Positions 1,834 to 60,353 of a stretch of DNA of 64,000 bases are shown piece by piece. This DNA comes from an uncultured Acidimicrobiales bacterium (GTDB lineage: Bacteria > Actinomycetota > Acidimicrobiia > Acidimicrobiales > JANYDT01): positions 559,919-623,918 of the forward strand of contig CAVXQD010000007.1 in NCBI GenBank assembly GCA_963763885.1. The letters run 5' to 3'. Within the stretch, counting starts at the first letter, position 1; the number at the start of each line of letters is the position of its first letter. The position numbers and the translations under genes are program-made. The notes under the pieces are model-generated. The model was not told where the DNA came from. It did no database searches and saw only the letters and a program-made list of their open reading frames with translations.

Positions 1834-4458
1834 ATGTCAGGAGCACCTTCCGGCGAGCGTGCGCCTTCACTCAGAGACCGACTCCCGCCCCCAGGGAGCG
1901 ATCCGCTGGACGTCCTCGACGGCTTTGCTGCGTGGGCACACGAGACGGGTCGTCCGCTCTACCCCCATCAGGAAGAAGCGGGTTTCGCGCTCGCTGACAA
2001 GCAGCACGTGGTTTTGGCCACGCCCACGGGGTCAGGCAAATCGATGGCAGCGCTGGCCGGGATTGTCCTTGCGATGAACGCTGGCAAGCGGGCCGTGTGG
2101 ACGGCGCCCATCAAGGCACTGGTTGCCGAGAAGTTCTTCGAACTGATCGATCTACTGGGACCGGAGAACGTTGGCCTTGCTATTGGCGATGCCTCTATCA
2201 ACCGCGATGCGCCGGTGTTGGTGTGCACGGCGGAGGTGCTGGCGAACCAAGCGCTCGGTGTGACCGGGCAGGGGTATCACAACGATGGCCACGATTCATA
2301 TGGCTTTGCGTGCCTCGATGAGTTCCACTACTACGGCGATGTCGACCGCGGCTGGGCTTGGCAGGTGCCGCTGCTGGTGATGCATGAGTGTCAGTTCTTG
2401 CTGGCCTCAGCAACGTTGGGCGATGTCAGCCCGTTGGTGGCGGATCTGGAAACCCGTACCGGTCGCCCGGTGACCCGCATCACTGGCGTGACGCGCCCCA
2501 TTCCGCTGTTCCACCAGTTCCGCACCACGCCGGTCTCAGACAGCGTGCAGGCCGCCATCGAGCAGGGCCTGTTCCCCGTGTACTTGGTGCATACCAGCCA
2601 GGCTGAAGCCGTCGAGCGGGCCAGCGCGTTGGTCAGCCTTCCCCTCACCTCGCGTCCGCAGCGGGAAGCCATTGCGGCAGCCATCAGCACGGAGCGTCTC
2701 AACACAGGTTTCGGTCAAAACTTGGGCCGCTACCTGCGCAACGGCGTCGGCGTGCACCACGCCGGCATGCTCCCCCGTTATCGGCGGTTGGTCGAACGTC
2801 TCGCGGGAGAAGGGCTACTCCCTGTCATCTGTGGCACAGACACGTTGGGCGTGGGCATCAACATTCCCATCCGAACCGTGTTGTTCAGCGCGCTTACCAA
2901 GTTCGACGGTTCAAAGGTACGCACGCTGCGGGCCAGAGAGTTTCATCAGCTGGCCGGGCGCGCGGGTCGGCCTGGGTTCGACCCAGACGGCCACGTGTGG
3001 GCGCAGGCACCCGAGCACGTCATCGACAACGAACGTGCGCTGTCACGCGCTGGCGACGATCCCAAGGCAAGACGCAAAGTCAAACGGGCCGAGGCACCAA
3101 AGGGCTTTGTCCACTGGGACGAAAAGACATTCGAACGTCTCATTGCATCTGAACCAGAGCCGCTGATCAGCCGGTTCAAGGTGACCGCCGACTTGGTGGC
3201 CTCGGTGCTTTCTCGCCCCGACGGCCCCGACGCGTTGAAGAACCTCCTCACCACCAACCACGACACCGAAACCCGTAAGCGCACACATAGACGCCGGGCA
3301 ATTCACATCTATCGCTCCCTCGAGGCGGCCGGGGTTGCGGAACGCCTTCGCGACAGCGCCGGCAAATGCGCCGGCGTTCGCATCGGGTCTCTTGTCAACG
3401 ACGGCACCGACGATGTTGAACGCGTCCGGTTCACGTCCCCACTTGGGCCGTTTGCCATTGAAGCCATCAGCACCTTCGAGCAAGACACCATCATCTACCC
3501 GCTCGATGTGATCAGCGTCATCGAGGCCATCGTCGACAACCCGATGGCCATCCTCATCGCGCAGGAGAAGCAGGCGCGGTCGCAAGAGATCGGGCGGATG
3601 AAGTCCGAGGGCATCGAGTACGAAGAACGCATGGCGCTCCTGCAGACCGTCACGTGGCCGAAACCGCTTGACGAAGAGTTGCGTGACATGTTCCTCATCT
3701 ACAAGCGCTCGCATCCATGGACAGAGACCTGGCCAGAGCCAAAGAGCATTGTGCGCGAACTGCTCGAAACGGGCGAAACGTTTGCCAACTACGTCAAGCG
3801 CTATGGCATCGAGCGCAGCGAGGGCTTGCTGCTTCGTCACCTCACCGATGTCTGGAAGGCGCTGGACAAGTCGTTGCCGTTGGACGCCTACACCGAAGAA
3901 GTGGAAGACGTCATCGATTGGTTGGCCGCGCTCATCCGATCTATCGACGCCAGCCTGCTTGAGGAATGGGAACGGCTGTCAGGCCTTGTCCCCGCGGATC
4001 GCCAGGCGCCCACGGCACCCCGCCAGGTCGATGCCGGTCCACCCAAAGCTTGGAAGACCGCGGTCCGCACAGCGGTGTTCGGCTGGGTGGAGCTGCTGGC
4101 CATCCGACGCCACGACCGCCTCGGCGACCGCACCGGCTGGAGCGTCGACACGCTCAACGAGACGATGGCGCCCTACTGGGCAGAGTACGACTCCATCGCG
4201 ACCGATGCTGATGCACGGTCGGCAAGCTTCTTCTCGCTTACGACTGGGCGCGGTCGAGCGGTGAACGGAGGGATCGGAGTTGAACCCGAGGTGGAGCAAC
4301 CCATTGAATTCGGCGAAACGGATTGGAGCATCACTCAGCGGCTGGCAGATCCCGCCGAAGACGGCGCGTGGCAGATGACCGTAGTGATGCCGGTGGCTGC
4401 TTCCATCGAGGCAGGGCAACCAATTCTGCGCCTAATCTCAATTGCACCGTTGCCCTAG
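1834..4458 (+). CDS. DExH-box (Ski2-like) helicase with DUF3516-type C-terminal region
   Basis: Motif I ATPTGSGKS, motif II LDEFHYY, motif III SAT, HHAGMLPRYRRLVE...GTDTLGVGINIP, and motif VI QLAGRAGRPG. The long C-terminal extension is typical of actinobacterial DUF3516 helicases. Start uncertain. Confidence 0.85.
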   Translation: MSGAPSGERAPSLRDRLPPPGSDPLDVLDGFAAWAHETGRPLYPHQEEAGFALADKQHVVLATPTGSGKSMAALAGIVLAMNAGKRAVWTAPIKALVAEKFFELIDLLGPENVGLAIGDASINRDAPVLVCTAEVLANQALGVTGQGYHNDGHDSYGFACLDEFHYYGDVDRGWAWQVPLLVMHECQFLLASATLGDVSPLVADLETRTGRPVTRITGVTRPIPLFHQFRTTPVSDSVQAAIEQGLFPVYLVHTSQAEAVERASALVSLPLTSRPQREAIAAAISTERLNTGFGQNLGRYLRNGVGVHHAGMLPRYRRLVERLAGEGLLPVICGTDTLGVGINIPIRTVLFSALTKFDGSKVRTLRAREFHQLAGRAGRPGFDPDGHVWAQAPEHVIDNERALSRAGDDPKARRKVKRAEAPKGFVHWDEKTFERLIASEPEPLISRFKVTADLVASVLSRPDGPDALKNLLTTNHDTETRKRTHRRRAIHIYRSLEAAGVAERLRDSAGKCAGVRIGSLVNDGTDDVERVRFTSPLGPFAIEAISTFEQDTIIYPLDVISVIEAIVDNPMAILIAQEKQARSQEIGRMKSEGIEYEERMALLQTVTWPKPLDEELRDMFLIYKRSHPWTETWPEPKSIVRELLETGETFANYVKRYGIERSEGLLLRHLTDVWKALDKSLPLDAYTEEVEDVIDWLAALIRSIDASLLEEWERLSGLVPADRQAPTAPRQVDAGPPKAWKTAVRTAVFGWVELLAIRRHDRLGDRTGWSVDTLNETMAPYWAEYDSIATDADARSASFFSLTTGRGRAVNGGIGVEPEVEQPIEFGETDWSITQRLADPAEDGAWQMTVVMPVAASIEAGQPILRLISIAPLP
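4242..4306 (+). repeat. family-A repeat copy embedded in-frame in the helicase CDS
   Basis: GACTGGGCGCGGTCGAGCGGTGAACGGAGGGATCGGAGTTGAACCCGAGGTGGAGCAACCCATT matches the 63-bp unit with a few indels. It is translated as GRGRAVNGGIGVEPEVEQPI without breaking the helicase frame. Confidence 0.85.
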
Positions 4459-4529: not shown

Positions 4530-5469
4530 ATGTTCAACCGTACTTTTCGTCTCTCCGTAGCTGCCGTGGTGTGTGCCGCCGCGGCGCTGCTCCCTCTGTC
4601 CAGGGTGGCTGCTGCCACCTCATCAACCGCACCGACTGAAGCTGCGAAGAAACCAAAGATTGGTTACGGACGCCAGCTTTCTGCTGAGGGATTGTTGGCG
4701 TTGAAGCCGACTCTGATCATCGGCAACGACGACTCGGGACCTGCCACGGTGTTAGCCCAATTGCGGTCCAGCACGGTTCCGGTTGTCATCGTCCCGGCGG
4801 GTGACGAGTGGCAGATGCAGGAAAGAAGATTCGTTGGGTTGCCCAAGCCGTTGGTCTGGCCGACTCTGGCGACGCGCTCGCAGACAAGGTCGAACGTGAC
4901 ATCGCAATTGTGCAGAAGCGGTGGGCGGCCTCCAGCAAAAGGATGGACCCGAAAGCGGTTTTCTTGTATTTGCCGGGCCCAAAAACGCAGCTACTCGGCG
5001 GAGCCGGCACCAGGGCACACGCCACGCTCAGCGCTGCCGGCGCTGTTGATGCTGGCGCCTACCTCGCCGGAGTGAGTGGATATGTTCCGATTACGTCCGA
5101 AGCGTTGGTGCGAGCAAAACCGGACACCATTGTGGTTTTGGAAAACGGCTTGGCTTCGGTCGGCGGTATCGATGGACTGCTGAAGATCCCCGGCATCGCA
5201 CTCACCCCAGCGGGCCAGAAGCGTCGCGTGTTGGCTTTCGATGATCTGAAGCTGCTTGCGTCACGGATGGAACACCCCACCACGCATTGTGCGCTGAGGC
5301 CTTGTCGGACGCCTACCGCTGCAGAGTCAGAGTCCTCGAGCACCCACTCGACGAGGGCTCCGTGCTCGTCGTTCCTGCCACCAATCACGCACAACATCAC
5401 CGACCTTCGCTACGCACCGAAGGTTGCAGCCCAACCTCACACCTCATCGCATTTGGAGAACAACAATGA
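4530..5469 (+). pseudogene. hmuT: heme/hemin ABC transporter substrate-binding protein (HmuT-like), disrupted
   Basis: A signal peptide is followed by KIGYGRQLSAEGLLALKPTLIIGNDDSGPATVLAQLRSSTVPVVIVP (ORF 4530..5075). Homology continues in another frame as KKIRWVAQAVGLADSGDALADKVERDI...ITSEALVRAKPDTIVVLENG...RRVLAFDDLKLL (ORF 4808..5596). It probably shifts again near 5255 into ORF 5287..5469. There are at least two frameshifts (~4806 and ~5255), and the first ~50 residues of the mature N-lobe appear to be missing. Confidence 0.65.
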
Positions 5470-17675: not shown

Positions 17676-19403
17676 TCAGCCGTCGTTGCGACCGGCAACA
17701 AGCCGATCGGTGAGGACTTTGAACGCAGCCATGTCACCCCGGGCAAGCAGCCCAGACTGTTCGGCCCAGGTGGACAAGCTTGGAGCGAAGCTCAACCCGG
17801 CTGCCTGGATGGCGCCCTTGAGCTGATCTTCCGACGAAGCGGCCAGCTTGGCAAAGGTGTTGATGCCAGCCTTGAGCAGTGCCTCGTTGAACTTCGGGCC
17901 GATGCCCTCGACAATGAGCAAGTTGTCGCTGCCGTCCTTGTTTTTGGCTTCCTCGGCAACTTCGACATTGCCCGAGCCGTACACAGCACCGCTGGCCAAC
18001 GCTTCGACACGTTCTGTCCCGGTGACAACTTCGCCACCGTAGCTGGATGGGTCCTGGCCGGAAATGAGGTACTCGGTGTACTGCTTGAAGCCTGCCTGAT
18101 CGCCTGCCACGAGATAGGCAGCCTGCTTCGGCCAGGTGACCATCGATGGCGCGAACGTGATGCCGCCCTTCTCGATTGCGCTCTTCAAACGGTCTTGCGA
18201 CGCGTCACGAATGTGGACCCACCGCGTGAGGCCATCAGCTCGCAAAGCTTGGTCGATCTTCGGACCGATTCCTTCGATCACTTTGAGATCGTCGGGGCCA
18301 GCTGTTGCTTCAGCGAGTTGACCGCGCAAGCCTTGGATCTCCGTGTCGCGGGTTGACACGAACCCGGTCAGCTCGGTGTGCTGGCCCTGCAGAGAAGCAT
18401 GCTGGCCTTCCAGTGCCTTGTAACGCGACTCCCAATCGGCCGCAACCTTGGCGCGGTCACCCTCAAGCGCCGAGTACTTGGCCTGCCACTCAGCGGCAAC
18501 CTTGGCACGCTCAGCCTCAGCCGCGTTGAACTTGGCCTCCCAATCGGCACCACGCTTGGCGCTGTCGGCAACGCTGGCTTCCGCAGTCTCCGCGCGCTTG
18601 CGCCAGTCTGCAGCGACCCGCTGGTGTTCTGCGTCTGCGTTCTTCTGCGAGGTTTCCAACTCGGCATAACGACGCGACCAGTTACCCAAATCACCCTCAG
18701 CCTTCTCCGCACGCAAACGCCACTCAGCCAAAGCCTTGTCAGCCTTGTCATTGTCAGCCTTGGTAGAACCCAACAAGCCCTGAACCTCAACAGCCTTCGC
18801 CTCAGCAGCAGACACCTTCGCAGCGGCAGCACTCTCCGCTGCAGACACCTTCGAAGACCACTCACCAACAACACGCGCATGCTCCGCATCCGCGTCCGCG
18901 ATGCGCTTCTCTGCAGCGGCCTTGGCGGCCTCGCCGGTCTCGGCCCGCTTACGCCAATCGCCAAGTGTGAGCTCGTAGTCGTTCTTCTGCTTTGCGAGCT
19001 CTGCCTTCAGGCCATCGATCTCGGCCTTTGAGGTGTCGACGGTGGCGACAAGGCCCTGCAAACGGGTGGCTTCGGCCTTGTGCGTGGACAGGTCGGCCTC
19101 GTGAGTCCGAACCAACGCAGCGGACTTGTCGAGGTCGGCACGGAGCGAACCAAGTTGACCGTCGTAGTCACCCTTGAGCGACACGATGGAGTCATCTTTG
19201 AGCTTCAACGCGTGCGAATGCTCATCGGAAAGAGTCTTGAGCCGGGTCGACTCGTCGGTTGAGGTCTCTACAACACGACGCAACACTTCTTCGTGGGACT
19301 TGCCACGCTTACCAAACCACCAATTGACCAAAAAACCGAGAGCGAACGCAGCGAGCGCCGCAAGCAGCGTTCCGCCGTGAAAATCCCAAGCAGCGAGAGT
19401 CAT
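17676..19403 (-). CDS. membrane-anchored coiled-coil protein with two C-terminal helix-hairpin-helix modules
   Basis: An N-terminal TM segment precedes ~330 aa of A/E/K-rich heptad-like sequence with repeated W-containing units (DWRKRAETxEA, AEWQAKYSALEG, ADWESRYKALEG). Two modules follow: DDLKVIEGIGPKIDQALRADGL... and NLLIVEGIGPKFNEALLKAGI... It lies 33 nt upstream of the FAS1-OmpA gene on the same strand. Confidence 0.7.
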   Translation of the reverse strand: MTLAAWDFHGGTLLAALAAFALGFLVNWWFGKRGKSHEEVLRRVVETSTDESTRLKTLSDEHSHALKLKDDSIVSLKGDYDGQLGSLRADLDKSAALVRTHEADLSTHKAEATRLQGLVATVDTSKAEIDGLKAELAKQKNDYELTLGDWRKRAETGEAAKAAAEKRIADADAEHARVVGEWSSKVSAAESAAAAKVSAAEAKAVEVQGLLGSTKADNDKADKALAEWRLRAEKAEGDLGNWSRRYAELETSQKNADAEHQRVAADWRKRAETAEASVADSAKRGADWEAKFNAAEAERAKVAAEWQAKYSALEGDRAKVAADWESRYKALEGQHASLQGQHTELTGFVSTRDTEIQGLRGQLAEATAGPDDLKVIEGIGPKIDQALRADGLTRWVHIRDASQDRLKSAIEKGGITFAPSMVTWPKQAAYLVAGDQAGFKQYTEYLISGQDPSSYGGEVVTGTERVEALASGAVYGSGNVEVAEEAKNKDGSDNLLIVEGIGPKFNEALLKAGINTFAKLAASSEDQLKGAIQAAGLSFAPSLSTWAEQSGLLARGDMAAFKVLTDRLVAGRNDG

Positions 19404-36201: not shown

Positions 36202-36233
36202 GGTCCTATTCGATCACGAGACGGCTTGTGTGT

Positions 36234-36306
36234 GACACACGGGCGCGGCCGAGCGGTGAACGGAGGGACGAAGTGAACCCGAGGTGGAGCAACCCATCAG
36301 ACACGG
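36234..36306 (+). repeat. family-A repeat, 1.1 copies, in a divergent intergenic region
   Basis: GACACACGGGCGCGGCCGAGCGGTGAACGGAGGGACGAAGTGAACCCGAGGTGGAGCAACCCATCA followed by GACACGG. It shares the GAGGTGGAGC variant with the helicase copy. Confidence 0.85.
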
Positions 36307-36328
36307 TCGCTACGCGAGACTGGGCACG

Positions 36329-38044
36329 ATGTCCGATTTCAATTCCGCCGCCGTTCATGAAGCAATCGCCGCAGCAAACCCCGATGCCCCCTGCATTATC
36401 TGGCGGGGTCGCACGTGGACGTGGGCCGAAACAACCGAACGGACCAGACGATTCGCCAACTACCTGTTGACTCGCGGCGTCACGGTTCCGGTGGAACGTG
36501 AGTACCTCGACGGGCATGAGTCCGGCCAAGACCACCTTGGCATCTACTTGTTGAACGGCAACGAGTACCTGGAGTGCATGATCGGCGCCTACAAGGCCCG
36601 TGTTGCGCCGTTCAACGTCAACTACCGCTACGTGGCAGAGGAACTGCGTTACCTACTGAACGACGCCAACTGCAAGGTGATCGTGTACCACGCTCGGTTC
36701 GCCCCAACTCTGGCTGAGATCCGCGACAGCCTGCCCAACTTGGAGTTCCTCATCCAGGTGGCAGACGACTCTGGCAACGATCTGCTTCCCGGCGCGGTGG
36801 ACTACGAAACGGCGCTCGCGTCGGCATCGCCCGAACGACCCGAGGTGCAGGTGATGGGAGGCGATTGGGCCCCCGATGACCTCTACATCTTGTACACCGG
36901 CGGCACTACTGGAATGCCGAAGGGCGTGCTGTGGCGTCAGACCGATATCGCCAACGTGGCCATGGGTCTGCACCCTGCAACGGGACCGCACACCAGCTTC
37001 GAAACTATCGAAGAGATTGTCACCAACGCCAGTGGGGCAGGACGCCTGGTCATCCTTCCTGCTGCCCCGTTCATGCATGGTGCTGGCCAGTGGATTGCGT
37101 TTCGGTCGTGGCATACCGGCGGACCGGTCGTGATTCAGAGCGTTGTCGACCGACTTGATCCCGTTGACTTACTTGAGCGGTGTGTTGAGCATGGCGTGCA
37201 GTTCCTACAGATCGTGGGCGACGCGTTTGGCCGGCCATTGGTAGACGAGATCGAACGGGCGGCTGCCGCGGGAACTCCATACGACTTGTCGAAGCTGACG
37301 TATGTGTTGTCCGGAGGTGCCGCACTCAGTGCCCCGTTGAAGAACCGGTTGATGGACGCCCTTCCTCATGCGCTCATCCTCGACGGCGTTGGTTCTTCCG
37401 AAGCCGGCGGCCAGATGGGGCAGGTTTCCACCAAGGCTTCTGGCCAACAGGCCACCACCGGAACATTCCCGAGCACACCAGGAAACTTCGTATTGGCTGA
37501 GGACTTGTCCGGCCCCTTGGACCCTGGCCATGACGGCATTGGTTGGCTGGCGAAAGCCGGTCGGCTTGCGCTTGGATATTTGGGAGACGCCGAGAAGACG
37601 GCCCGTACATTTCCCACGGTGGCCGGAGTGCGGTATTCCGTTCCGGGCGACCGGGCTCGGCTGTTGGAACCCACAGAGGCTTCGATGGGTGCGCCGATGA
37701 TCGAACTACACGGCCGGGACTCGGTCACCATCAATTCGGGCGGCGAGAAGATTTTTGCCGAAGAGGTCGAGGCAGCGATGTTGCATCACGGCGACGTCTA
37801 CGACGTCACGGTTGCGCCACGGCCGAGCGAACGATGGGGCAACGAAGTGGTTGCCATCGTGCAGGTTGCCGAAGGCACCAATCCCACTGACGCCGACCTC
37901 CTGGCCGTCGCCGCCGAGCACATCGCCCGGTACAAGCTGCCGAAGTCGATCGTCCGGGTGGCAAAGATCCAGCGGTCCCCGTCTGGCAAGGCCGACTACC
38001 GCTGGGCCAAAGAAATCGCCGCCACCACAACCCCCGAGGCGTAA
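36329..38044 (+). CDS. AMP-binding acyl-CoA synthetase (FadD-like)
   Basis: MSDFNSAAVHEAIAAANPDAP..., ILYTGGTTGMPKGV (AMP-binding motif I), YLGD, and SGGEKIFAEEVE...YKLPK. The ATG at 36329 was chosen; the track start at 36284 lies inside the repeat. Confidence 0.85.
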   Translation: MSDFNSAAVHEAIAAANPDAPCIIWRGRTWTWAETTERTRRFANYLLTRGVTVPVEREYLDGHESGQDHLGIYLLNGNEYLECMIGAYKARVAPFNVNYRYVAEELRYLLNDANCKVIVYHARFAPTLAEIRDSLPNLEFLIQVADDSGNDLLPGAVDYETALASASPERPEVQVMGGDWAPDDLYILYTGGTTGMPKGVLWRQTDIANVAMGLHPATGPHTSFETIEEIVTNASGAGRLVILPAAPFMHGAGQWIAFRSWHTGGPVVIQSVVDRLDPVDLLERCVEHGVQFLQIVGDAFGRPLVDEIERAAAAGTPYDLSKLTYVLSGGAALSAPLKNRLMDALPHALILDGVGSSEAGGQMGQVSTKASGQQATTGTFPSTPGNFVLAEDLSGPLDPGHDGIGWLAKAGRLALGYLGDAEKTARTFPTVAGVRYSVPGDRARLLEPTEASMGAPMIELHGRDSVTINSGGEKIFAEEVEAAMLHHGDVYDVTVAPRPSERWGNEVVAIVQVAEGTNPTDADLLAVAAEHIARYKLPKSIVRVAKIQRSPSGKADYRWAKEIAATTTPEA

Positions 38045-38092
38045 CCGTCGAGCCGCCACTCGAGGCGTGCTGGGGTGGGGTGCAGTGGGCCT

Positions 38093-38170
38093 GACTGCGG
38101 TTGTCTCCTGCATGGCTGGGCGTGCTGTGCAGCCTGCAGAGCACGCCCCCACCTGCAGAAGACGCCCACA
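38093..38170 (+). repeat. left terminal inverted repeat
   Basis: GACTGCGGTTGTCTCCTGCATGGCTGGGCGTGCTGTGCAGCCTGCAGAGCACGCCCCCACCTGCAGAAGACGCCCACA. It contains the internal palindrome CGTGCTGTGCAG/CTGCAGAGCACG. Confidence 0.9.
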
Positions 38171-38210
38171 CTTTAAGAACGTGTACTGAAAAGCATTGAT
38201 ATAACATAAC

Positions 38211-39248
38211 GTGATGGAACAGAGGTTCGGTGTGGTCAAACGCTCAGAGTTACTTGACCAAGGTTTGTCGCGTGGCCGGATCGACTGGATGGTGAGCTCC
38301 GGTCGCTTGGAACTTGTCCACCGGGGCCTCTACCTCGTGAGGGGACAACCAACTGATTCACGTGACGAATTCGGCTCATCTCCAAACTTCGGAAATTCGT
38401 TCGATCAGGAGAGGGCAAGGGCACATTTGGCTGGGTGCGGACCGGGTGCGGTGCTCAGTCACCACTCCGCCGCAGCGCTCCACGGGTTTGACACCACTCA
38501 CCCACGTCCTTCAGCGGTCTACGTTTCGGCTGGACGAACGTGCGGGGTGCGAGGGAACTCCGAGTTGCTGATTACCCGACCGCGATACCAATCGGAAGTC
38601 ACTCTGATCCAGGGTTTCGCAACTACGTCACGGGCGCAAACAGTTCTCGACCTCGCTGCGATCGTGCCGCCTGTTGAGCTGCGCCGAATCCTCGAATCAG
38701 CCCTGCGCGGAACAGACCCCCGGCGCCCGGATCAGTGGCGCACCGACGTGCTTCTCAATTTGGATCGTCTGACCATTGAACGGCCCCGCAGCAGAGGGGC
38801 TACTGCACTCATTCAGTTGCTTGCAACGAGACCGCCGAACGCCCGTCCAACCGGATCGCTTCCGGAAACCGTCCTGTGGCAGGCGCTTGAATCGTGCGGG
38901 ATCGAGGTCATCCCCCAACCAACGTTGCGAGTACACGTTGGAGAACATCAGGTTCACGTGTACTTTCCAGACCAACTGATCCTGGGTGGCCACGCGCTGG
39001 TTGAGGTGGACGGCGCCGAGCACCTCGAGCCGCAGCGTGCGTACACCGACGCCATCCGTCAAAACCGACTTGTCGGCTTCCATCTGTTTCGGTTTCCAGC
39101 GTCTCGTGTTCTGCACCGCACAGACGAAGTCGTTGCAGAACTGGTGCAACACGTAGCGATGACGCCCTCGCTTGGTAACCAGTGGACCGTCGCAGGACGC
39201 GTCGTCAGCGGAGCGGGCAACGAGTGGACTATTCGTCCTGCTGGCTAG
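38211..39248 (+). CDS. AbiEi-like N-terminal domain / DUF559 (Vsr-like endonuclease fold) C-terminal domain protein
   Basis: N-terminus VVKRSELLDQGLSRGRIDWMVSSGRLELVHRGLYLV (AbiEi_4-like wHTH). C-terminus PQPTLRVHVGEHQVHVYFPDQLILGGHALVEVDGAEHLEPQRAYTDAIRQNRLVGFHLFRF (DUF559, E-V-D-G-x2-H). Confidence 0.7.
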   Translation: MMEQRFGVVKRSELLDQGLSRGRIDWMVSSGRLELVHRGLYLVRGQPTDSRDEFGSSPNFGNSFDQERARAHLAGCGPGAVLSHHSAAALHGFDTTHPRPSAVYVSAGRTCGVRGNSELLITRPRYQSEVTLIQGFATTSRAQTVLDLAAIVPPVELRRILESALRGTDPRRPDQWRTDVLLNLDRLTIERPRSRGATALIQLLATRPPNARPTGSLPETVLWQALESCGIEVIPQPTLRVHVGEHQVHVYFPDQLILGGHALVEVDGAEHLEPQRAYTDAIRQNRLVGFHLFRFPASRVLHRTDEVVAELVQHVAMTPSLGNQWTVAGRVVSGAGNEWTIRPAG

Positions 39249-39274
39249 CTCCGGTTCATGCCGAGCCAAGAAAG

Positions 39275-39352
39275 TTTGGGCGTGCTCTGCAGGTTGGGGC
39301 GTGCTCTGCAGGCTGCACAGCACGACCGGCCATGCAGGAGACAACCACAGTC
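39275..39352 (-). repeat. right terminal inverted repeat
   Basis: Its reverse complement, GACTGTGGTTGTCTCCTGCATGGCCGGTCGTGCTGTGCAGCCTGCAGAGCACGCCCCAACCTGCAGAGCACGCCCAAA, aligns end to end with 38093..38170. Confidence 0.9.
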
Positions 39353-39383
39353 GGGCTAAACCCGCCCGGACGGTGTGCGAGGG

Positions 39384-40292
39384 TCAGCCTTGTTTGATGG
39401 CGTGGCCACCGAAGGAGTTGCGCATGGCGGAGAGCATGCGTAGGCCGTAGGCGTTGTCGTCGCGTGAGGCGAAGCGAGCGAACAACGACGCTGCGATGAC
39501 GTACGCGGGTGCGCCGTATTGCACTGCGGCATCGACGGTCCAACGGCCTTCGCCAGAGTCTTCGACGTATCCCTTCAGGCCGGTCAGCTCCGGATCCTTT
39601 GCCAGGTAACCAGCCAACAGCTCCAACAGCCACGACCGGACCACGGACCCGTGCATCCACGCCTCGGCAAGCGCAGCCTGATCAACGTTGAAGGGACTCT
39701 TTTCGATGATCTCGAAACCCTCGGCGTACGACTGCATCATGGCGTACTCAATGCCGTTGTGGACCATCTTCACGAAGTGGCCAGCCCCATGAGCCTCATC
39801 AACATGGATGAGCCCACCCGTTGACGGGGCCAACGTCTTGAAGATGGGTTCGCAACGCCGATATGCGTCACCCGGGCCGCCGATCATGAGGCAGTACCCA
39901 TTGGCCAAGCCCCAGACACCGCCCGATGTGCCGCTGTCCAACATCGTGATCCCATGCTGTGACAACTGTTCGGCGCGCGCCTGTGTGTCGAGGTACTTCG
40001 AGTTGCCGCCGTCGATGACGATGTCTCCCGCACCGAGTAGACCGCAGAGTGCGTCGACGGTGGACTGAGTTGGCGCCCCTGCAGGCACCATGATCCACAC
40101 AACCCTCTGGCCAACTGGTCCAAGTGCAGCGACCATTTCTTCCAGCGACCCGGCACCAAGCGCACCCTTGGCGACCGAGGCAGCAACGGCGTCGGGGGAA
40201 CGATCAAACGCCACAACCTCGTGACCACCACTGAGCAGCCGCTCAGTCATGTTGGCGCCCATCTTTCCCAAACCAATCATCGAAATACGCAT
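39384..40292 (-). CDS. gnd: 6-phosphogluconate dehydrogenase, decarboxylating (short ~300-aa type)
   Basis: MRISMIGLGKMGANMTERLL..., DGGNS, SGGVWG, GAGHFVKMVHNGIEYAMMQSYAEG, and SRDDNAYGLRMLSAMRNSFGGH. Confidence 0.88.
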   Translation of the reverse strand: MRISMIGLGKMGANMTERLLSGGHEVVAFDRSPDAVAASVAKGALGAGSLEEMVAALGPVGQRVVWIMVPAGAPTQSTVDALCGLLGAGDIVIDGGNSKYLDTQARAEQLSQHGITMLDSGTSGGVWGLANGYCLMIGGPGDAYRRCEPIFKTLAPSTGGLIHVDEAHGAGHFVKMVHNGIEYAMMQSYAEGFEIIEKSPFNVDQAALAEAWMHGSVVRSWLLELLAGYLAKDPELTGLKGYVEDSGEGRWTVDAAVQYGAPAYVIAASLFARFASRDDNAYGLRMLSAMRNSFGGHAIKQG

Positions 40293-53463: not shown

Positions 53464-53690
53464 CCGCTGCGTGGGTTGGCGGGTCCTGCCCCTTCCGTGG
53501 TCCCGCTGTGTGGGAGGCGGGTCCTGCCTCCTCCGGCCCCTTCCCACTGCGTGGGAGGCGGGTCCTGCCTCCTCCGGCCCTCCCACTGCGTGGGAGGCGG
53601 GTCCTGCCTCCTCCGGTTCCCTCCCACCGTCCTCGCTTCGCTGCGGGCGGCGGGGCCCTCCCTTCGGGTCACCCCCCTCCCACTCCGCTG
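53464..53690 (+). repeat. family-B repeat with 4 tandem 40-43-bp 5' subunits
   Basis: The subunit CC(R)CTG(Y)GTGGG(W)GGCGGGTCCTGCC(Y)C(Y)TCCGG... occurs 4 times. It is followed by the common 3' part CCACCGTCCTCGCTTCGCTGCGGGCGGCGGGGCCCTCCCTTCGGGTCACCCCCCTCCCACTCCGCTGG. Confidence 0.9.
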
Positions 53691-53793
53691 GTTTCCGTCC
53701 CCGCTTCACTGGTTGGTGGGTCTTTGTCGGGTGGTGGTGTGTTGTGGCTGGTTGTGGGGGTGTTTGGGAGCAAAAGAATCTTTGCAAAGTACT

Positions 53794-53819
53794 TCAATAC
53801 GAACACATGTTCGTATTGA
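53794..53819. promoter_or_regulatory. LexA (Cheo/SOS) box inside a 26-bp palindrome
   Basis: TCAATACGAACA-CA-TGTTCGTATTGA has perfect 12-bp arms. The core CGAACACATGTTCG (53800..53813) fits the Gram-positive/mycobacterial SOS box GAAC-N4-GTTC. It ends 17 nt upstream of the HNH gene ATG. Confidence 0.65.
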
Positions 53820-53836
53820 TGGTGTAGCATGTCTGT

Positions 53837-55034
53837 ATGGGGGCGGCGGTCGTAGACATCACAGACGAATTGCTTGCCGGGTTGGGCCGGTTGTTGGAAT
53901 TTGTCGATTCTGGGCGGGTTGGGCTGGAGGATGTTGCTGGTGTTCGGCGGGTGTTTGAACGTGCAGATCTGGCGTTGACTAAGACTGTTGCTTGCACGGC
54001 TGGTGGGACGTCGTTTAACGCGTTGGGGTTCCGGGATGTTGGTGATTGGTTCGCTGCCGCGACTGGGGCGCGTCGTGGTGAGGGCCGGGCACGGTGCCAA
54101 CGGGCGAAGCTTCTTGTGTTGCTTCCGCTGGTTGATGCTGCGGTTACTGGCGGGAAGTTCGGTTCGTCACATCTGGCATGTCTTACGGTTGCGGTGACGA
54201 GGGAACGTGAACTGTTAGCTGTTCGGGATCAGCAGGTGTTTGTTGATTTCGCTGCGATGTTGGACGCGTCACAATTCGCCCGTGTCGTGAACCGGTGGGT
54301 TGCGTTGGCTGATGATGAACTCGGGAGACCCCACCGCGGCAGATGATGCTCACACGGCCCGTCGGCTGCAGCTTTCCCAATTGTTGGACGGGACATGGCG
54401 AATCAACGGTGTCCTTGACCCTGTCGCTGGTGAGGCCGTGCAAGCCGCGTTGGCCGCAGCGATGAAACCTGACGTTGACGATCTCCGGAGCCCGGGGCAA
54501 CGACGCGCTGACGCGCTCGTTGATGTGTGCTTGGAATCTCTGGCGAACAGTGACCGGCCGTCGGTCGGCAACGAACGCCCGAACGTCAACGTCGTGTTCC
54601 ACGCAGCCGACGGTTCAGCACACACAACCAACGGCTGGTTCCTGCGGAACTGGGAACTTTCCCAAGTGTTATGCGATTCGACAATCACGGCGGTGGCTGC
54701 GACGTTGAATGGTGACGTGTTCGACGTTGGAACCCCGGTATCGGTCATCCCGACCAGGAACCGCAAAGCAGTCACCATCCGTGACCGCGGTTGCCGGATG
54801 GGTGGCTGTAACCAGCCAGCACGGTTCTGTGAGATCCACCACATCCTGGAACGCGAAAACGGTGGAACCCACGAACTTCCCAACCTGGTCATGCTCTGCC
54901 GCTACCACCACCGAGAACTCCACCGGAGAGGCGTCAAACTCCACTGGCAAGACACAACGCTGATAGCGGTATACCCGAACGGCGCAGCCATCCACGGCCC
55001 ACCCCCACCATCAACCCACCCCACCCTCCTCTAA
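53837..55034 (+). pseudogene. DUF222 / HNH endonuclease (13E12-repeat-family-like), single frameshift
   Basis: ORF 53837..54346 holds the DUF222 N-terminal part (...FARVVNRWVALADDELG). ORF 54300..55034 continues in the +1 frame: DPTAADDAHTARRLQLSQLLDGTWRINGVLDP...RDRGCRMGGCNQPARFCEIHHILERENGGTHELPNLVMLCRYHHRELH (HNH). The frames rejoin if one nt is removed around GGGAGACC (54323..54330). Confidence 0.75.
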
Positions 55035-55117
55035 GCCCGACAAGTACTAAGCGAACACACCAAACCCAAGCAAACGACCGCGCCCCTAAAGCGGAGGTGG
55101 CCGGGCAGCGGAGAAGA

Positions 55118-55257
55118 CCAGCGGAGTGGGAGGCGGGTGACCCGAAGGAAGGGGCCCGTTCGCGCGCAGCGAAGCGAGCACAACGGGAAGGGGCCGGAGG
55201 AGGCAGGACCCGCCACCCACGCAGCGGGCACAACGGCGGAGCAGCGGGACCACGGCG
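55118..55257 (-). repeat. family-B repeat, inverted copy
   Basis: The reverse complement of 55118..55228 reads CCCGCTGCGTGGGTGGCGGGTCCTGCCTCCTCCGGCCCCTTCCCGTTGTGCTCGCTTCGCTGCGCGCGAACGGGCCCCTTCCTTCGGGTCACCCGCCTCCCACTCCGCTGG. It aligns along its whole length with 413..522. Confidence 0.9.
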
Positions 55258-58898: not shown

Positions 58899-60305
58899 TC
58901 ATGGTGCAACATACCCAGCTGCAGCGACACCTGCGCTGTATCCGGTTGACCAACATCCCTGAAGCAAGTAGCCGCCGGTGGGTGCTTCCCAGTCCAGCAT
59001 CTCGCCGGCAAGGAACACCCCTGGGTTCCGGAGCAACATGCCAGTGTCGTCAATGGCCTGGCCAGCGACTCCACCGCTTGACGAGATCGCACGTTCGAGT
59101 CCTGCCACGCCGATAACAGGAACCGGCAATCGATGCACCAGCGCAGCAAGGGCCGCAAATTGTTCCGCCGCTGGGCGTTGGGCCACGTCACGCGCCCCGC
59201 ACTCCAGCATCAACCCAATGGCAGCAGGAGACAACCCTGCCTTGCGGAGGCGATTGGAGAGCGAGTCACCTGCGCGCGCTTTGCTCAGCGCCCGTTCGGT
59301 GTCGGCCACCGAAACGTCTGGCCGCAGGTTGCACACCAGCGGGCTTCCGTCGCGTAACGCCGGGCTGAGCGTATACACCGGGCCGCCCTCCAAGCCGGAG
59401 CGTGTCACAACAACATCGCCAACGGTGGTGCGGTCACCGCACATCAGCGCGACGTTCTTGATGGGCTCGCCCTCATAGCGACCAAGGAACACGGCGCTCC
59501 AGGCGATGCGTGCTCCGACGTTGGACGCCCCCAAGGCGTGGGTGGCAACACTTGCGTCTTTGAACGTCTTTACCCATTCACCGTCTGACCCCGTGCGAGG
59601 CCAGCTCCCTCCGCCCAAGGCAAGTAGCACGGCCCTGGCTTCGATCACTTCTCGTTGTGACGACCTCCGCCCAACGCCGTTGAGGACGACCCGATGTGAG
59701 GCTGCGGCGGTGGGTTCGGTGGAATTTGGTGTGCCGATCATCAGCGCGCTGGCAATATCGGCTCGCCACTCGGTGGTCACGTCAACGCCCATCGCTGCAA
59801 GCCTGCTCAGCCAGGCGCGCAGCAGTGGCGTGGCTCGCATCGAGGCCGGAAAGACACGGCCGCTGGTTCCCACAAACGTTTGTTCACCTAGGTCGTCGGC
59901 CCACAAGCGCAATTCGGCTGGCGGGAATTGCTCAACGCAACTTCGAACATATGCAGCCGCAGTCCCAGAGAATTTCGTGAGCAAATGGGTGACCGGCTCG
60001 TCATTGCTGAGATTGAGACCACTACGACCGGCCAACAGGAACTTGCGTCCTGGCGAGCGTTGCGCGTCGACCACACGGATCTTGGCCCAGGGGGCTGCAG
60101 CGGCAGCCCGTTCGGCGGCGATCAACCCCGCCGGCCCTCCACCGATGACAAGCACATCGACAAACAGATGGACGCGACCGTCCAATTCTTCAGTGAAGGG
60201 ATGGTTCCCAGTTGTCGCTGCGCTGTTTGTCATGTTCGGATTCATCAGGTTCGGATTCATCATGTTCGGATTCATCATGTTCGGATTCATCATGTTCGGA
60301 TTCAT
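58899..60305 (-). CDS. BaiN/HI0933-family NAD(P)/FAD-dependent oxidoreductase with a repeated N-terminal (MNPNM)n extension
   Basis: VLVIGGGPAGLIAAERAA, GRKFLLAGRSGLNLSN, FVGTSGRVFP, and GEMLDWEAPTGGYLLQGCWSTGYSAG. The N-terminus MNPNMMNPNMMNPNMMNPNLMNPNM is encoded by the 15-bp tandem repeat. The true start is uncertain. Confidence 0.75.
   Translation of the reverse strand: MNPNMMNPNMMNPNMMNPNLMNPNMTNSAATTGNHPFTEELDGRVHLFVDVLVIGGGPAGLIAAERAAAAAPWAKIRVVDAQRSPGRKFLLAGRSGLNLSNDEPVTHLLTKFSGTAAAYVRSCVEQFPPAELRLWADDLGEQTFVGTSGRVFPASMRATPLLRAWLSRLAAMGVDVTTEWRADIASALMIGTPNSTEPTAAASHRVVLNGVGRRSSQREVIEARAVLLALGGGSWPRTGSDGEWVKTFKDASVATHALGASNVGARIAWSAVFLGRYEGEPIKNVALMCGDRTTVGDVVVTRSGLEGGPVYTLSPALRDGSPLVCNLRPDVSVADTERALSKARAGDSLSNRLRKAGLSPAAIGLMLECGARDVAQRPAAEQFAALAALVHRLPVPVIGVAGLERAISSSGGVAGQAIDDTGMLLRNPGVFLAGEMLDWEAPTGGYLLQGCWSTGYSAGVAAAGYVAP
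60231..60305 (-). repeat. 5 x 15-bp tandem repeat ATGAATCCGAACMTG (plus a degenerate sixth unit upstream)
   Basis: Plus-strand units CATGTTCGGATTCAT at 60231, 60261, 60276 and 60291, and CAGGTTCGGATTCAT at 60246. A unit carries up to two in-frame ATG codons (nine in the array; the 60246 unit has CTG in place of one). Confidence 0.95.
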
Positions 60306-60353
60306 ATGTTCGCAGTACTTCCGTTGGGTGGTTGACCTCTAGGCTTCTGAGCT

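Follow-up and report, generated by a model that had tools for sequence, protein, structure and literature searches.

The 64-kb stretch of DNA analysed here, from an uncultured Acidimicrobiales bacterium, is referred to as the window, and all coordinates without a locus label are positions in it. Between a fadD-like gene and a gnd-like gene lies a cassette with one open reading frame (ORF, 38214-39248), which stands alone between two repeat arms of 86 nt each (38089-38174 and 39271-39356). According to a repeat finder, the arms are reverse complements of each other at 78 of 86 positions (91%), with a spacing of 1096 nt between them. The flanking-repeat score of this locus is 132, the highest in the window; a pseudo-gene of the same length slid over the whole 64 kb gives a median of 20 and a 99th percentile of 30. 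In addition, the pattern GGGCGT-N5-GCAG occurs five times in the window, all five within the two arms, against a chance expectation of 0.42, and none of 100 shuffled sequences reached five occurrences. A preliminary description of this DNA had reported 78-bp inverted repeats around one gene for an AbiEi-like winged helix-turn-helix (wHTH) fused to DUF559, direct and inverted motifs within the repeats that looked like arrays of protein-binding sites, an AT-rich stretch between the left repeat and the gene, and fadD and gnd as neighbours. All of these elements are present: the repeats are slightly longer, the internal motifs are real and can be refined to four 19-nt sites per arm, a layout that supports the resemblance to protein-binding arrays, and the AT-rich stretch carries a conserved -10-like motif. 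On the other hand, the term terminal inverted repeat was a wrong description, the elements being near-palindromic four-site arrays that mostly occur as direct pairs.

Each arm is in fact a near-palindrome of four 19-nt sites ordered -> -> <- <-, with a degenerate outermost site, and the site consensus in the window arrays is gt.tGGGCGTgcnnTGCAG. The features of the cassette, its product and its neighbours are the following.

38089..38174, unstranded: upstream array, an 86-nt near-palindrome of four 19-nt sites with its centre at base 38133
38095..38113, plus strand: outer site of the upstream array, degenerate, CTGCGGTTGTCTCCTGCAT (site slicing)
38114..38132, plus strand: inner site of the upstream array, GGCTGGGCGTGCTGTGCAG (site slicing, motif scan)
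38134..38152, minus strand: inner site of the upstream array, GTGGGGGCGTGCTCTGCAG (site slicing, motif scan)
38153..38171, minus strand: gene-proximal site of the upstream array, GTGTGGGCGTCTTCTGCAG (site slicing, motif scan)
38197..38205, plus strand: extended -10-like motif TGATATAAC, with the hexamer TATAAC at 38200-38205, 8 nt before the ATG at 38214
38214..39248, plus strand: cassette gene, 344 aa from the ATG at 38214, with a GTG at 38211 also in frame
Residues 4-43 of the product: wHTH domain, Pfam AbiEi_4, 29.6 bits against a cut-off of 25
Residues 46-61: disordered variable linker (structure model)
Up to about residue 215: AbiEi-like second domain (structural match)
About residues 216-316: DUF559/Vsr-like nuclease domain, with Pfam DUF559 (PF04480) at residues 246-314, 25.1 bits against a cut-off of 20.6
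Residues 323-342: small, conserved, three-strand C-terminal beta module with W324, G328, G333 and W338 invariant and no Pfam assignment
39271..39356, unstranded: downstream array, an inverted copy of the upstream array (91%) with four 19-nt sites and its centre at base 39312
39274..39292, plus strand: gene-proximal site of the downstream array, GTTTGGGCGTGCTCTGCAG (site slicing, motif scan)
39293..39311, plus strand: inner site of the downstream array, GTTGGGGCGTGCTCTGCAG (site slicing, motif scan)
39313..39331, minus strand: inner site of the downstream array, GGCCGGTCGTGCTGTGCAG, with one core change (site slicing)
39332..39350, minus strand: outer site of the downstream array, degenerate, CTGTGGTTGTCTCCTGCAT (site slicing)
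36284-38044, plus strand: fadD-like acyl-CoA synthetase gene, left neighbour of the cassette
39384-40292, minus strand: gnd-like gene for a decarboxylating 6-phosphogluconate dehydrogenase, right neighbour of the cassette

The gene-side edge of the upstream array lies ~29 nt upstream of the -10-like motif, and the downstream array begins 22 nt past the cassette stop codon and finishes 27 nt short of the gnd stop codon. A gene for a PAS/GGDEF protein is also found among the neighbours of the cassette in the window.

As judged from profile matches and a structure model, the product of the cassette gene joins a complete AbiEi-like module of two domains to a predicted DUF559/Vsr-like nuclease of the PD-(D/E)XK type. 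In PADLOC, 11 AbiEi models match it (best E 2.1e-13), covering residues 7-166, while no NCBIfam model matches and no database record was found for the exact 345-aa product. An AlphaFold2 model from 11 homologues (predicted local distance difference test 86.9, predicted template-modelling score 0.83) was compared with known structures by Foldseek, which aligned residues ~1-215 with the whole AbiEi antitoxin (6Y8Q_A, E 3.8e-5 over 217 columns) and matched Rv2827c (1ZEL, E 6.5e-4 to 9.7e-4 over 237-253 columns), with modest TM-scores of 0.39-0.48 for both. The C-terminal domain matches PvuRts1I/AbaSI, the DUF559 structure 3HRL and the I-Bth0305I homing endonuclease, and the protein has a weak fold likeness to TnsA. 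Residues P252-D253, E264-x-D266-G267 and H270 do not vary among 15 homologues and correspond in the alignment to VDF...VEADGGQH of 3HRL (profile match, E 2.5e-8); given this invariance of catalytic-type residues, the nuclease site appears intact. The subfamily comprises 82 clusters at E<=1e-30 inside a superfamily of 17,671 clusters at E<=1e-3. Homologues were found neither on plasmids in PLSDB by tblastn nor among viruses in IMG/VR with the subfamily alignment, and a phage or plasmid origin of the cassette was rejected on these grounds.

The AT-rich stretch between the upstream array and the start codon holds the -10-like motif, which recurs as T[A/G][T/A]AA[C/T] in an alignment of six cassettes representing four types, 8-11 nt ahead of the start codon. 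No Shine-Dalgarno sequence was found before the cassette start, and a consensus scan gave no canonical two-hexamer sigma-70 promoter at the cassette. The short distance from the motif to the start, together with the lack of a Shine-Dalgarno sequence, suggests that the cassette mRNA is leaderless or near-leaderless and that the motif belongs to a putative promoter. Read in this way, the upstream array would cover roughly -37 to -115 and abut the -35 region; across loci, four-site upstream arrays lie 39-66 nt before the start codon. With regard to gene starts, most of the relatives' loci and proteins (denoted below by L- and P-numbers, respectively) come from metagenomic contigs, several of them with mis-called starts. 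For example, the database starts of P0002 (L002 343-417) and P0010 (L009 ~1840-1918) were called too late, and the reading frame and the conserved promoter motif place the true starts at the equivalent of the window ATG, which restores the N-terminus of the wHTH.

The same anatomy has been conserved in relatives at 77%, 63%, 50%, 47%, 43% and 32-34% protein identity, all of them from metagenome-assembled genomes or metagenomes of Acidimicrobiia. Eleven array-bearing loci are available in all (32-100% identity, window included), ten of which have both flanks and one of which (L012) is partial. All ten complete loci carry a ~76-nt array shortly before the start codon and another after the stop codon, with flanking-repeat scores of 64-145 against the window background 99th percentile of 30; in L012, the downstream array is present, and the stop codon TAA lies inside its site 1. 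In all 18 elements tested, which represent six motif types, the strongest internal period is 19 nt and there is a central dyad. Within each site, a conserved core of 6-8 nt keeps a fixed position and is accompanied by a variable spacer of 4-5 nt and by a GCAG-like tail that several types share, and the cores seen (GGGCGT, AATGATG, GGTGATG, GTGGACG and GGTTGCG) differ with the protein clade. About seven independent cassette types can be told apart.

Type A: window and L002, core GGGCGT
Type A': L004/L011, in the fadD-gnd slot, core GGGCGT with spacers that differ from type A
Type B: L006, GAATGATG
Type C: L007-L009, core GGTGATG
Type D: L013, core GTGGACG
Type G: L012, core AGGTTGCG, seen on one side only (partial locus)
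Types E/F: L014 and L015, other motifs

Protein and site core change together between these types. Of the 10 loci with both flanks, 8 have the two arrays of the cassette as direct repeats, and the inverted arrangement is confined to the window and L002; since the arrays are near-palindromic, their orientation is probably irrelevant, unlike that of transposon ends. Types A-D have one array per side. In types E/F the arrays form clusters with a spacing of ~141-200 nt, L015 carrying four arrays upstream (3290-3807) and three downstream (4985-5426) and L014 at least two downstream (2238-2461), so that the copy number of the arrays can expand locally. A distant family member, P0040 (30% identity, locus L039), has no flanking arrays; the idea that they are a general feature of the whole Pfam architecture was therefore discarded, and arrays are claimed for the subfamily only.

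Relatives that lack the unit are also informative. Four loci (L035-L038) keep the order DUF2207, fadD, ..., gnd, PAS-GGDEF and have neither the gene nor the two arrays. The preliminary description had looked to the fadD-gnd interval of related genomes for an empty site, and such sites exist: in L038 the stop codons of fadD and gnd are 18 nt apart, in L035 the two gene ends overlap, and in L036 and L037 a luciferase-like gene occupies the slot instead of the cassette. No type-A half-site or array was found at the empty fadD-gnd junctions, which are 0-18 nt long, nor any type-A array in the 10-kb flanks of relatives. The arrays are not simple terminators of the flanking genes. Being absent where the gene is absent, they travel with the gene and are not a pre-existing homing target. 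A further arrangement is seen in L012, where fadD is followed by a luciferase-like gene and then by a different cassette type in opposite orientation, in the same slot and with a protein 50% identical to that of the window. The closest relative of L012 in this set is L036 (fadD 86% identical), whose slot is empty of a cassette. In the spacer between gnd and the luciferase-like gene of L036 (5949-6080) lies an unrelated element of 132 nt, whose 22-nt terminal inverted repeats (CGCGCGTGAAACCATGAGTAAC) look perfect and which also contains an inner palindrome; it may be a miniature inverted-repeat transposable element (MITE) or another structured element at the same hotspot. Cassettes of types B, C, D and E/F occupy unrelated contexts, and reciprocal empty sites are not available for types B and C, whose loci do not lie in the window.

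The cassette locus is stably syntenic in three lineages, and the unit evolves faster than its surroundings. Between the window and L004, fadD, gnd and the GGDEF gene are 87%, 92% and 88% identical and the cassette protein 63%, with 52% in the wHTH and 71% in the nuclease domain; another example is the comparison of L014 with L015, in which the flanks are 82-84% and the cassette 70% identical at the nucleotide level. As for the arrays, the left and right ones inside one cassette share 91, 88 and 81% identity, above their identity to the positional orthologue (76-80% and 52-61%), and the likeness between left and right extends to non-core positions. The two arrays of one cassette thus evolve in concert, and the unit as a whole is dispensable, with gain, loss and inversion each affecting it as one block at a fixed slot, like a module at a chromosomal hotspot. 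Such behaviour is typical of conflict, defence or addiction modules.

With slightly more confidence than doubt, the arrays are read here as cognate AbiEi-type operators of a self-contained, fast-evolving and dispensable cassette. The upstream array would serve the autoregulation of the gene, and the downstream array would be a second operator or an insulator. This interpretation draws on the sequence layout, the structure model and analogy with the AbiEi family. AbiEi has two 23-bp repeats as binding sites upstream of its own gene and Rv2827c has four, at -1..-131 of its promoter; each repeat takes one protomer, and both proteins autoregulate (PMC7319586). Since the members of this family bind their own upstream repeats, the cassette arrays can be taken as cognate operators, and since four upstream repeats are a documented operator layout in the family (PMC7319586), regulation is the more economical reading. 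The single-gene unit would then consist of array, promoter, gene and array, with each 19-nt site bound by one protomer through the wHTH of the cassette's own protein, as in AbiEi and Rv2827c. From its position next to the -35 region, the upstream array would keep a potentially toxic nuclease under negative autoregulation. As a second operator, the downstream array might cooperate with the upstream one by looping the ~1.1-kb gene; alternatively, it might form a hairpin, or a roadblock once bound, and so shield the gene from the neighbour that is convergent with it. By analogy, the cassette is inferred to be a single-chain relative of the AbiE toxin-antitoxin and abortive-infection logic, with a nuclease in the place of the toxin.

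Several observations weigh against the operator interpretation. A downstream copy of the operator has no precedent in the AbiEi literature searched, and the role proposed for it is a guess. The upstream arrays lie upstream of the -10 motif and the start, and not over them, which is not the classic position of a repressor, and the strong hairpins that the arrays can form (dG -34 to -49 kcal/mol) are compatible with a structural role. Moreover, P0040 has no arrays, the feature being confined to the small subfamily of 82 clusters (E<=1e-30), and the 3-7 clustered arrays of L014/L015 are more than an operator needs. Finally, the similarity between left and right arrays at non-core positions needs gene conversion or recent duplication, which regulation alone does not explain.

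This last point leads to the strongest of the alternatives, an unlikely but serious one, according to which the unit is a nuclease-driven mobile cassette whose arrays are cis-acting ends: the wHTH would tether the Vsr-like nuclease to them, its nicks or cuts would set off excision, inversion, gene conversion between the two ends and insertion at a preferred slot, and host repair would complete the reaction. The cassette is a clean indel relative to syntenic relatives, the L012 slot holds a different and opposite-oriented type while that of its closest relative is empty, and homologous cassettes occur in at least four unrelated contexts. The concerted evolution of the arrays, the flip of one array between window/L002 and L004, the local amplification in L014 and L015 and the weak fold similarity to TnsA and I-Bth0305I point the same way. 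Ends of the Tn7/Mu type, which typically carry multiple ~20-bp binding sites, also resemble the multi-site arrays. However, neither a second type-A cassette nor a solo or dispersed type-A array was found in the window or in scans of metagenome and viral collections, and the outer flanks (...gcagtgg / array ... array / taaaccc...) have no common direct repeat that could be a target-site duplication. The cassette encodes no strand-transfer enzyme, and no transposase or recombinase of the DDE, HUH, serine or tyrosine kind, its only domains being AbiEi-like and DUF559. The orientation of the ends is not conserved, the locus has stayed syntenic while gnd diverged to 92%, and the empty sites hold no array that could have been a homing target; in addition, flank-mediated homologous exchange and deletion could give a patchy distribution with no self-mobility. 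The mobile cassette bounded by terminal inverted repeats that the preliminary description had proposed is thus partly supported, in that the unit is a discrete indel, patchily distributed and flippable. Its inverted orientation does not generalise, however, transposase, target-site duplication and second copy are lacking in what was scanned, and the synteny is stable. Self-mobilisation or nuclease-stimulated gene conversion would nevertheless explain the homogenisation, the flip and the amplification of the arrays better than regulation alone, and is retained as a minority hypothesis. A related proposal, which seems somewhat more doubtful still, is a minimal selfish element made of a nuclease only, in which nicking at wHTH-tethered ends would drive conversion, inversion, excision and slot-specific re-insertion, with a private protein/site specificity in each lineage, as in toxin-antitoxin and restriction-modification systems.

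It is improbable that the arrays are purely structural hairpins of RNA or DNA which, with no protein bound, would serve as bidirectional, factor-independent terminators, as mRNA stabilisers or as insulators of a toxic gene against read-through. All arrays do fold as single strands into long stems (z -1.9 to -8.3), the upstream array of the window having a dG of -45 kcal/mol and a z of -4.65, and in most loci 0-28 nt separate the stop codon from the downstream array, which in the window is situated between two convergent genes. Terminators with no U-tract are, besides, common in Actinomycetota. The arrays fold well, however, because any palindrome must, and a hairpin requires neither two same-orientation motif copies per arm nor a constant 19-nt period across six unrelated sequences. 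Would-be hairpin partners (sites 1-4 and 2-3) are no more alike than non-partners, the overall identities being 0.69, 0.69 and 0.67, and at spacer positions pairing partners share 0.43 against 0.53 for same-orientation neighbours, with no covariation; stem pairing is thus not the constraint. In the region 37950-39450 no terminator-like site was detected, the hairpins there having no T-run, and an Rfam search at E<=1 returned two chance matches to microRNA models and no meaningful RNA family. Besides, paired terminators need neither match in sequence nor change with the protein clade.

Very improbable is a dispersed repeat family, akin to repetitive extragenic palindromes (REP), bacterial interspersed mosaic elements (BIME) or MITEs, of which the gene would be a domesticated partner or between two copies of which it would merely happen to lie. 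A gene flanked by cognate palindromes that track its clade is the layout of REP and their associated tyrosine transposases (RAYT; PMC2817692), L015 has BIME-like tandem array clusters, and a further repeat family, in at least three copies, is present in the window around an HNH gene. On the other hand, there are exactly two copies of the array in 64 kb, with all five type-A sites inside them, and the empty sites and the 10-kb flanks of relatives contain none. A scan with a two-site type-A pattern gave 18 matches in metagenome contigs and one in viral contigs, all of which were chance matches or unrelated tandem repeats; none formed a four-site palindrome or had DUF559, fadD or gnd in its vicinity. 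The protein, moreover, is not an HUH/Y1 transposase. Hardly credible, finally, is a switch operated by a host recombinase or RecA, in which inverted arrays would give inversion and direct arrays excision: the array pair is inverted in window/L002 and direct elsewhere, the cassette is flipped in L012 and its presence is polymorphic, but no recombinase gene lies near the cassette in the window or at the relatives' loci inspected, inverting the gene along with its own promoter would not switch expression, and excision between direct arrays should leave a solo array, of which the empty sites have none.

Three other candidates were set aside. An integron-type cassette with an attC-like palindrome after the gene was rejected because arrays stand to the left and right of the gene, which comes with a promoter of its own, and because neither an integrase nor a series of cassettes is present. 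Homing into a solo array that was already there, or a long target-site duplication, was rejected because empty sites hold no array. A free-standing homing endonuclease gene does not fit either, since empty junctions have neither array nor half-site and the arrays flanking the cassette are both intact.

A gene bracketed by its own operator-like arrays does not seem to have been described before: the literature searched (DUF559, MTES_1575, AbiEi-endonuclease fusions) held no description of this layout, and DUF559 and AbiEi were not found together in it. The subfamily supplies explicit predicted DNA targets for the very large AbiEi_4-DUF559 superfamily, whose function is unknown. These comprise seven different consensuses for 19-bp sites, each with the protein that goes with it, and a defined promoter, so that synthetic DNA allows direct tests of binding and autoregulation, of the swapping of specificities and of nuclease targeting. 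If the operator interpretation is true, the AbiE toxin-antitoxin logic would extend to a form with regulator and effector joined in a single chain; should the arrays be where the nuclease acts, mobility or gene conversion would be reached by a novel route.

Among known systems, AbiEi and Rv2827c (COG5340, type IV AbiE) share with the cassette protein the wHTH and the fold of the second domain, together with the AbiEi_4 and PADLOC AbiEi matches. In both cases two or four repeats of ~20 bp, arranged as inverted pairs, stand immediately ahead of the gene; each is bound by one protomer in AbiEi and Rv2827c, with autoregulation as the outcome (PMC7319586), and the same is predicted for the cassette. 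The differences are nevertheless considerable. The cassette carries a Vsr-like nuclease fused in cis and has no AbiEii/DUF1814 nucleotidyltransferase as partner: in the window and in L004 it is flanked by the fadD-like and gnd-like genes, and at other loci by different metabolic genes. With no AbiEii toxin gene adjacent, the protein is AbiEi-like and not a member of an AbiE toxin-antitoxin pair. Its sites are of 19 bp against 23 bp in AbiEi, a second, homogenised array follows the gene, and the upstream array precedes the -10 motif and is not placed over the transcription start.

With DUF559/Vsr-like nucleases (3HRL, the PvuRts1I family and I-Bth0305I), the cassette protein shares the C-terminal fold and the D...ExDG..H signature. 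The Vsr-like clade unites the Vsr repair nickases and an intron homing endonuclease (PMC3424549). In contrast to these enzymes, the nuclease domain of the cassette is fused to an AbiEi module, putatively sequence-specific, and is flanked by arrays, with no methyltransferase partner, no intron or intein context and no homing-target array in empty alleles. An analogy of layout is offered by the OL and OR operators of phage lambda, which bracket cI-rexAB and loop. In both cases two multi-site clusters 1-2 kb apart flank the gene of the binding protein, binding being a prediction for the cassette; the proteins are unrelated, however, looping of the cassette is only proposed, and its arrays are near-identical through concerted evolution.

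Another example of a single nuclease gene bracketed by long repeats is provided by the REP13E12-type DUF222-HNH genes of Actinomycetota, one of which lies in the window itself (53464-55244). These differ from the cassette in their HNH nuclease, in their GC-rich tandem units of ~40 nt and in a putative SOS-box-like control palindrome. The gene in the window (DUF222 and HNH, 53837-55034, plus strand) is split by a frameshift into two ORFs (53837-54346 and 54300-55034), and its locus (~53.8 kb) is the sole other strong outlier of the flanking-repeat score in the window, with 92. GC-rich repeats in inverted orientation, at 53464-53692 and 55117-55244, enclose the gene and hold the tandem ~40-nt units (CCCACTGCGTGGGAGGCGGGTCCTGCCTCCTCCGG). 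Just upstream of the gene, at ~53797-53818, there is a perfect palindrome, AATACGAACA-CA-TGTTCGTATT (CGAAC-N4-GTTCG), which we take to resemble the actinobacterial LexA SOS box. The GC-rich repeat that flanks this gene occurs a third time at 406-522, followed by six to seven tandem units of 62-63 nt (495-919), to which a weak match (61%) overlaps the start of fadD (36207-36318). Other tandem repeats of the window are a 15-nt unit at 60230-60320 (TCATGTTCGGATTCA, about six times) and three 54-nt units at 18406-18567.

Finally, the cassette can be compared with the REP/RAYT units. In these, too, a single-copy gene lies between two palindromic repeats whose sequence co-varies with the protein clade, a repeat is placed very near the stop codon and inheritance is largely vertical (PMC2817692). 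On the other hand, the cassette protein combines a wHTH with a PD-(D/E)XK nuclease, whereas RAYT is an HUH/Y1 transposase (IS200/IS605-like). The cassette repeats are also undispersed, since the 64 kb contain two copies and the collection scans yielded none, and they are four-site arrays of 19-nt units where a REP is one hairpin of 20-40 nt. Furthermore, the cassette is found in Acidimicrobiia and REP/RAYT in Gammaproteobacteria. The REP/RAYT unit is the nearest analogue of the cassette in architecture, and the AbiEi/Rv2827c operator the nearest one in its presumed mechanism.

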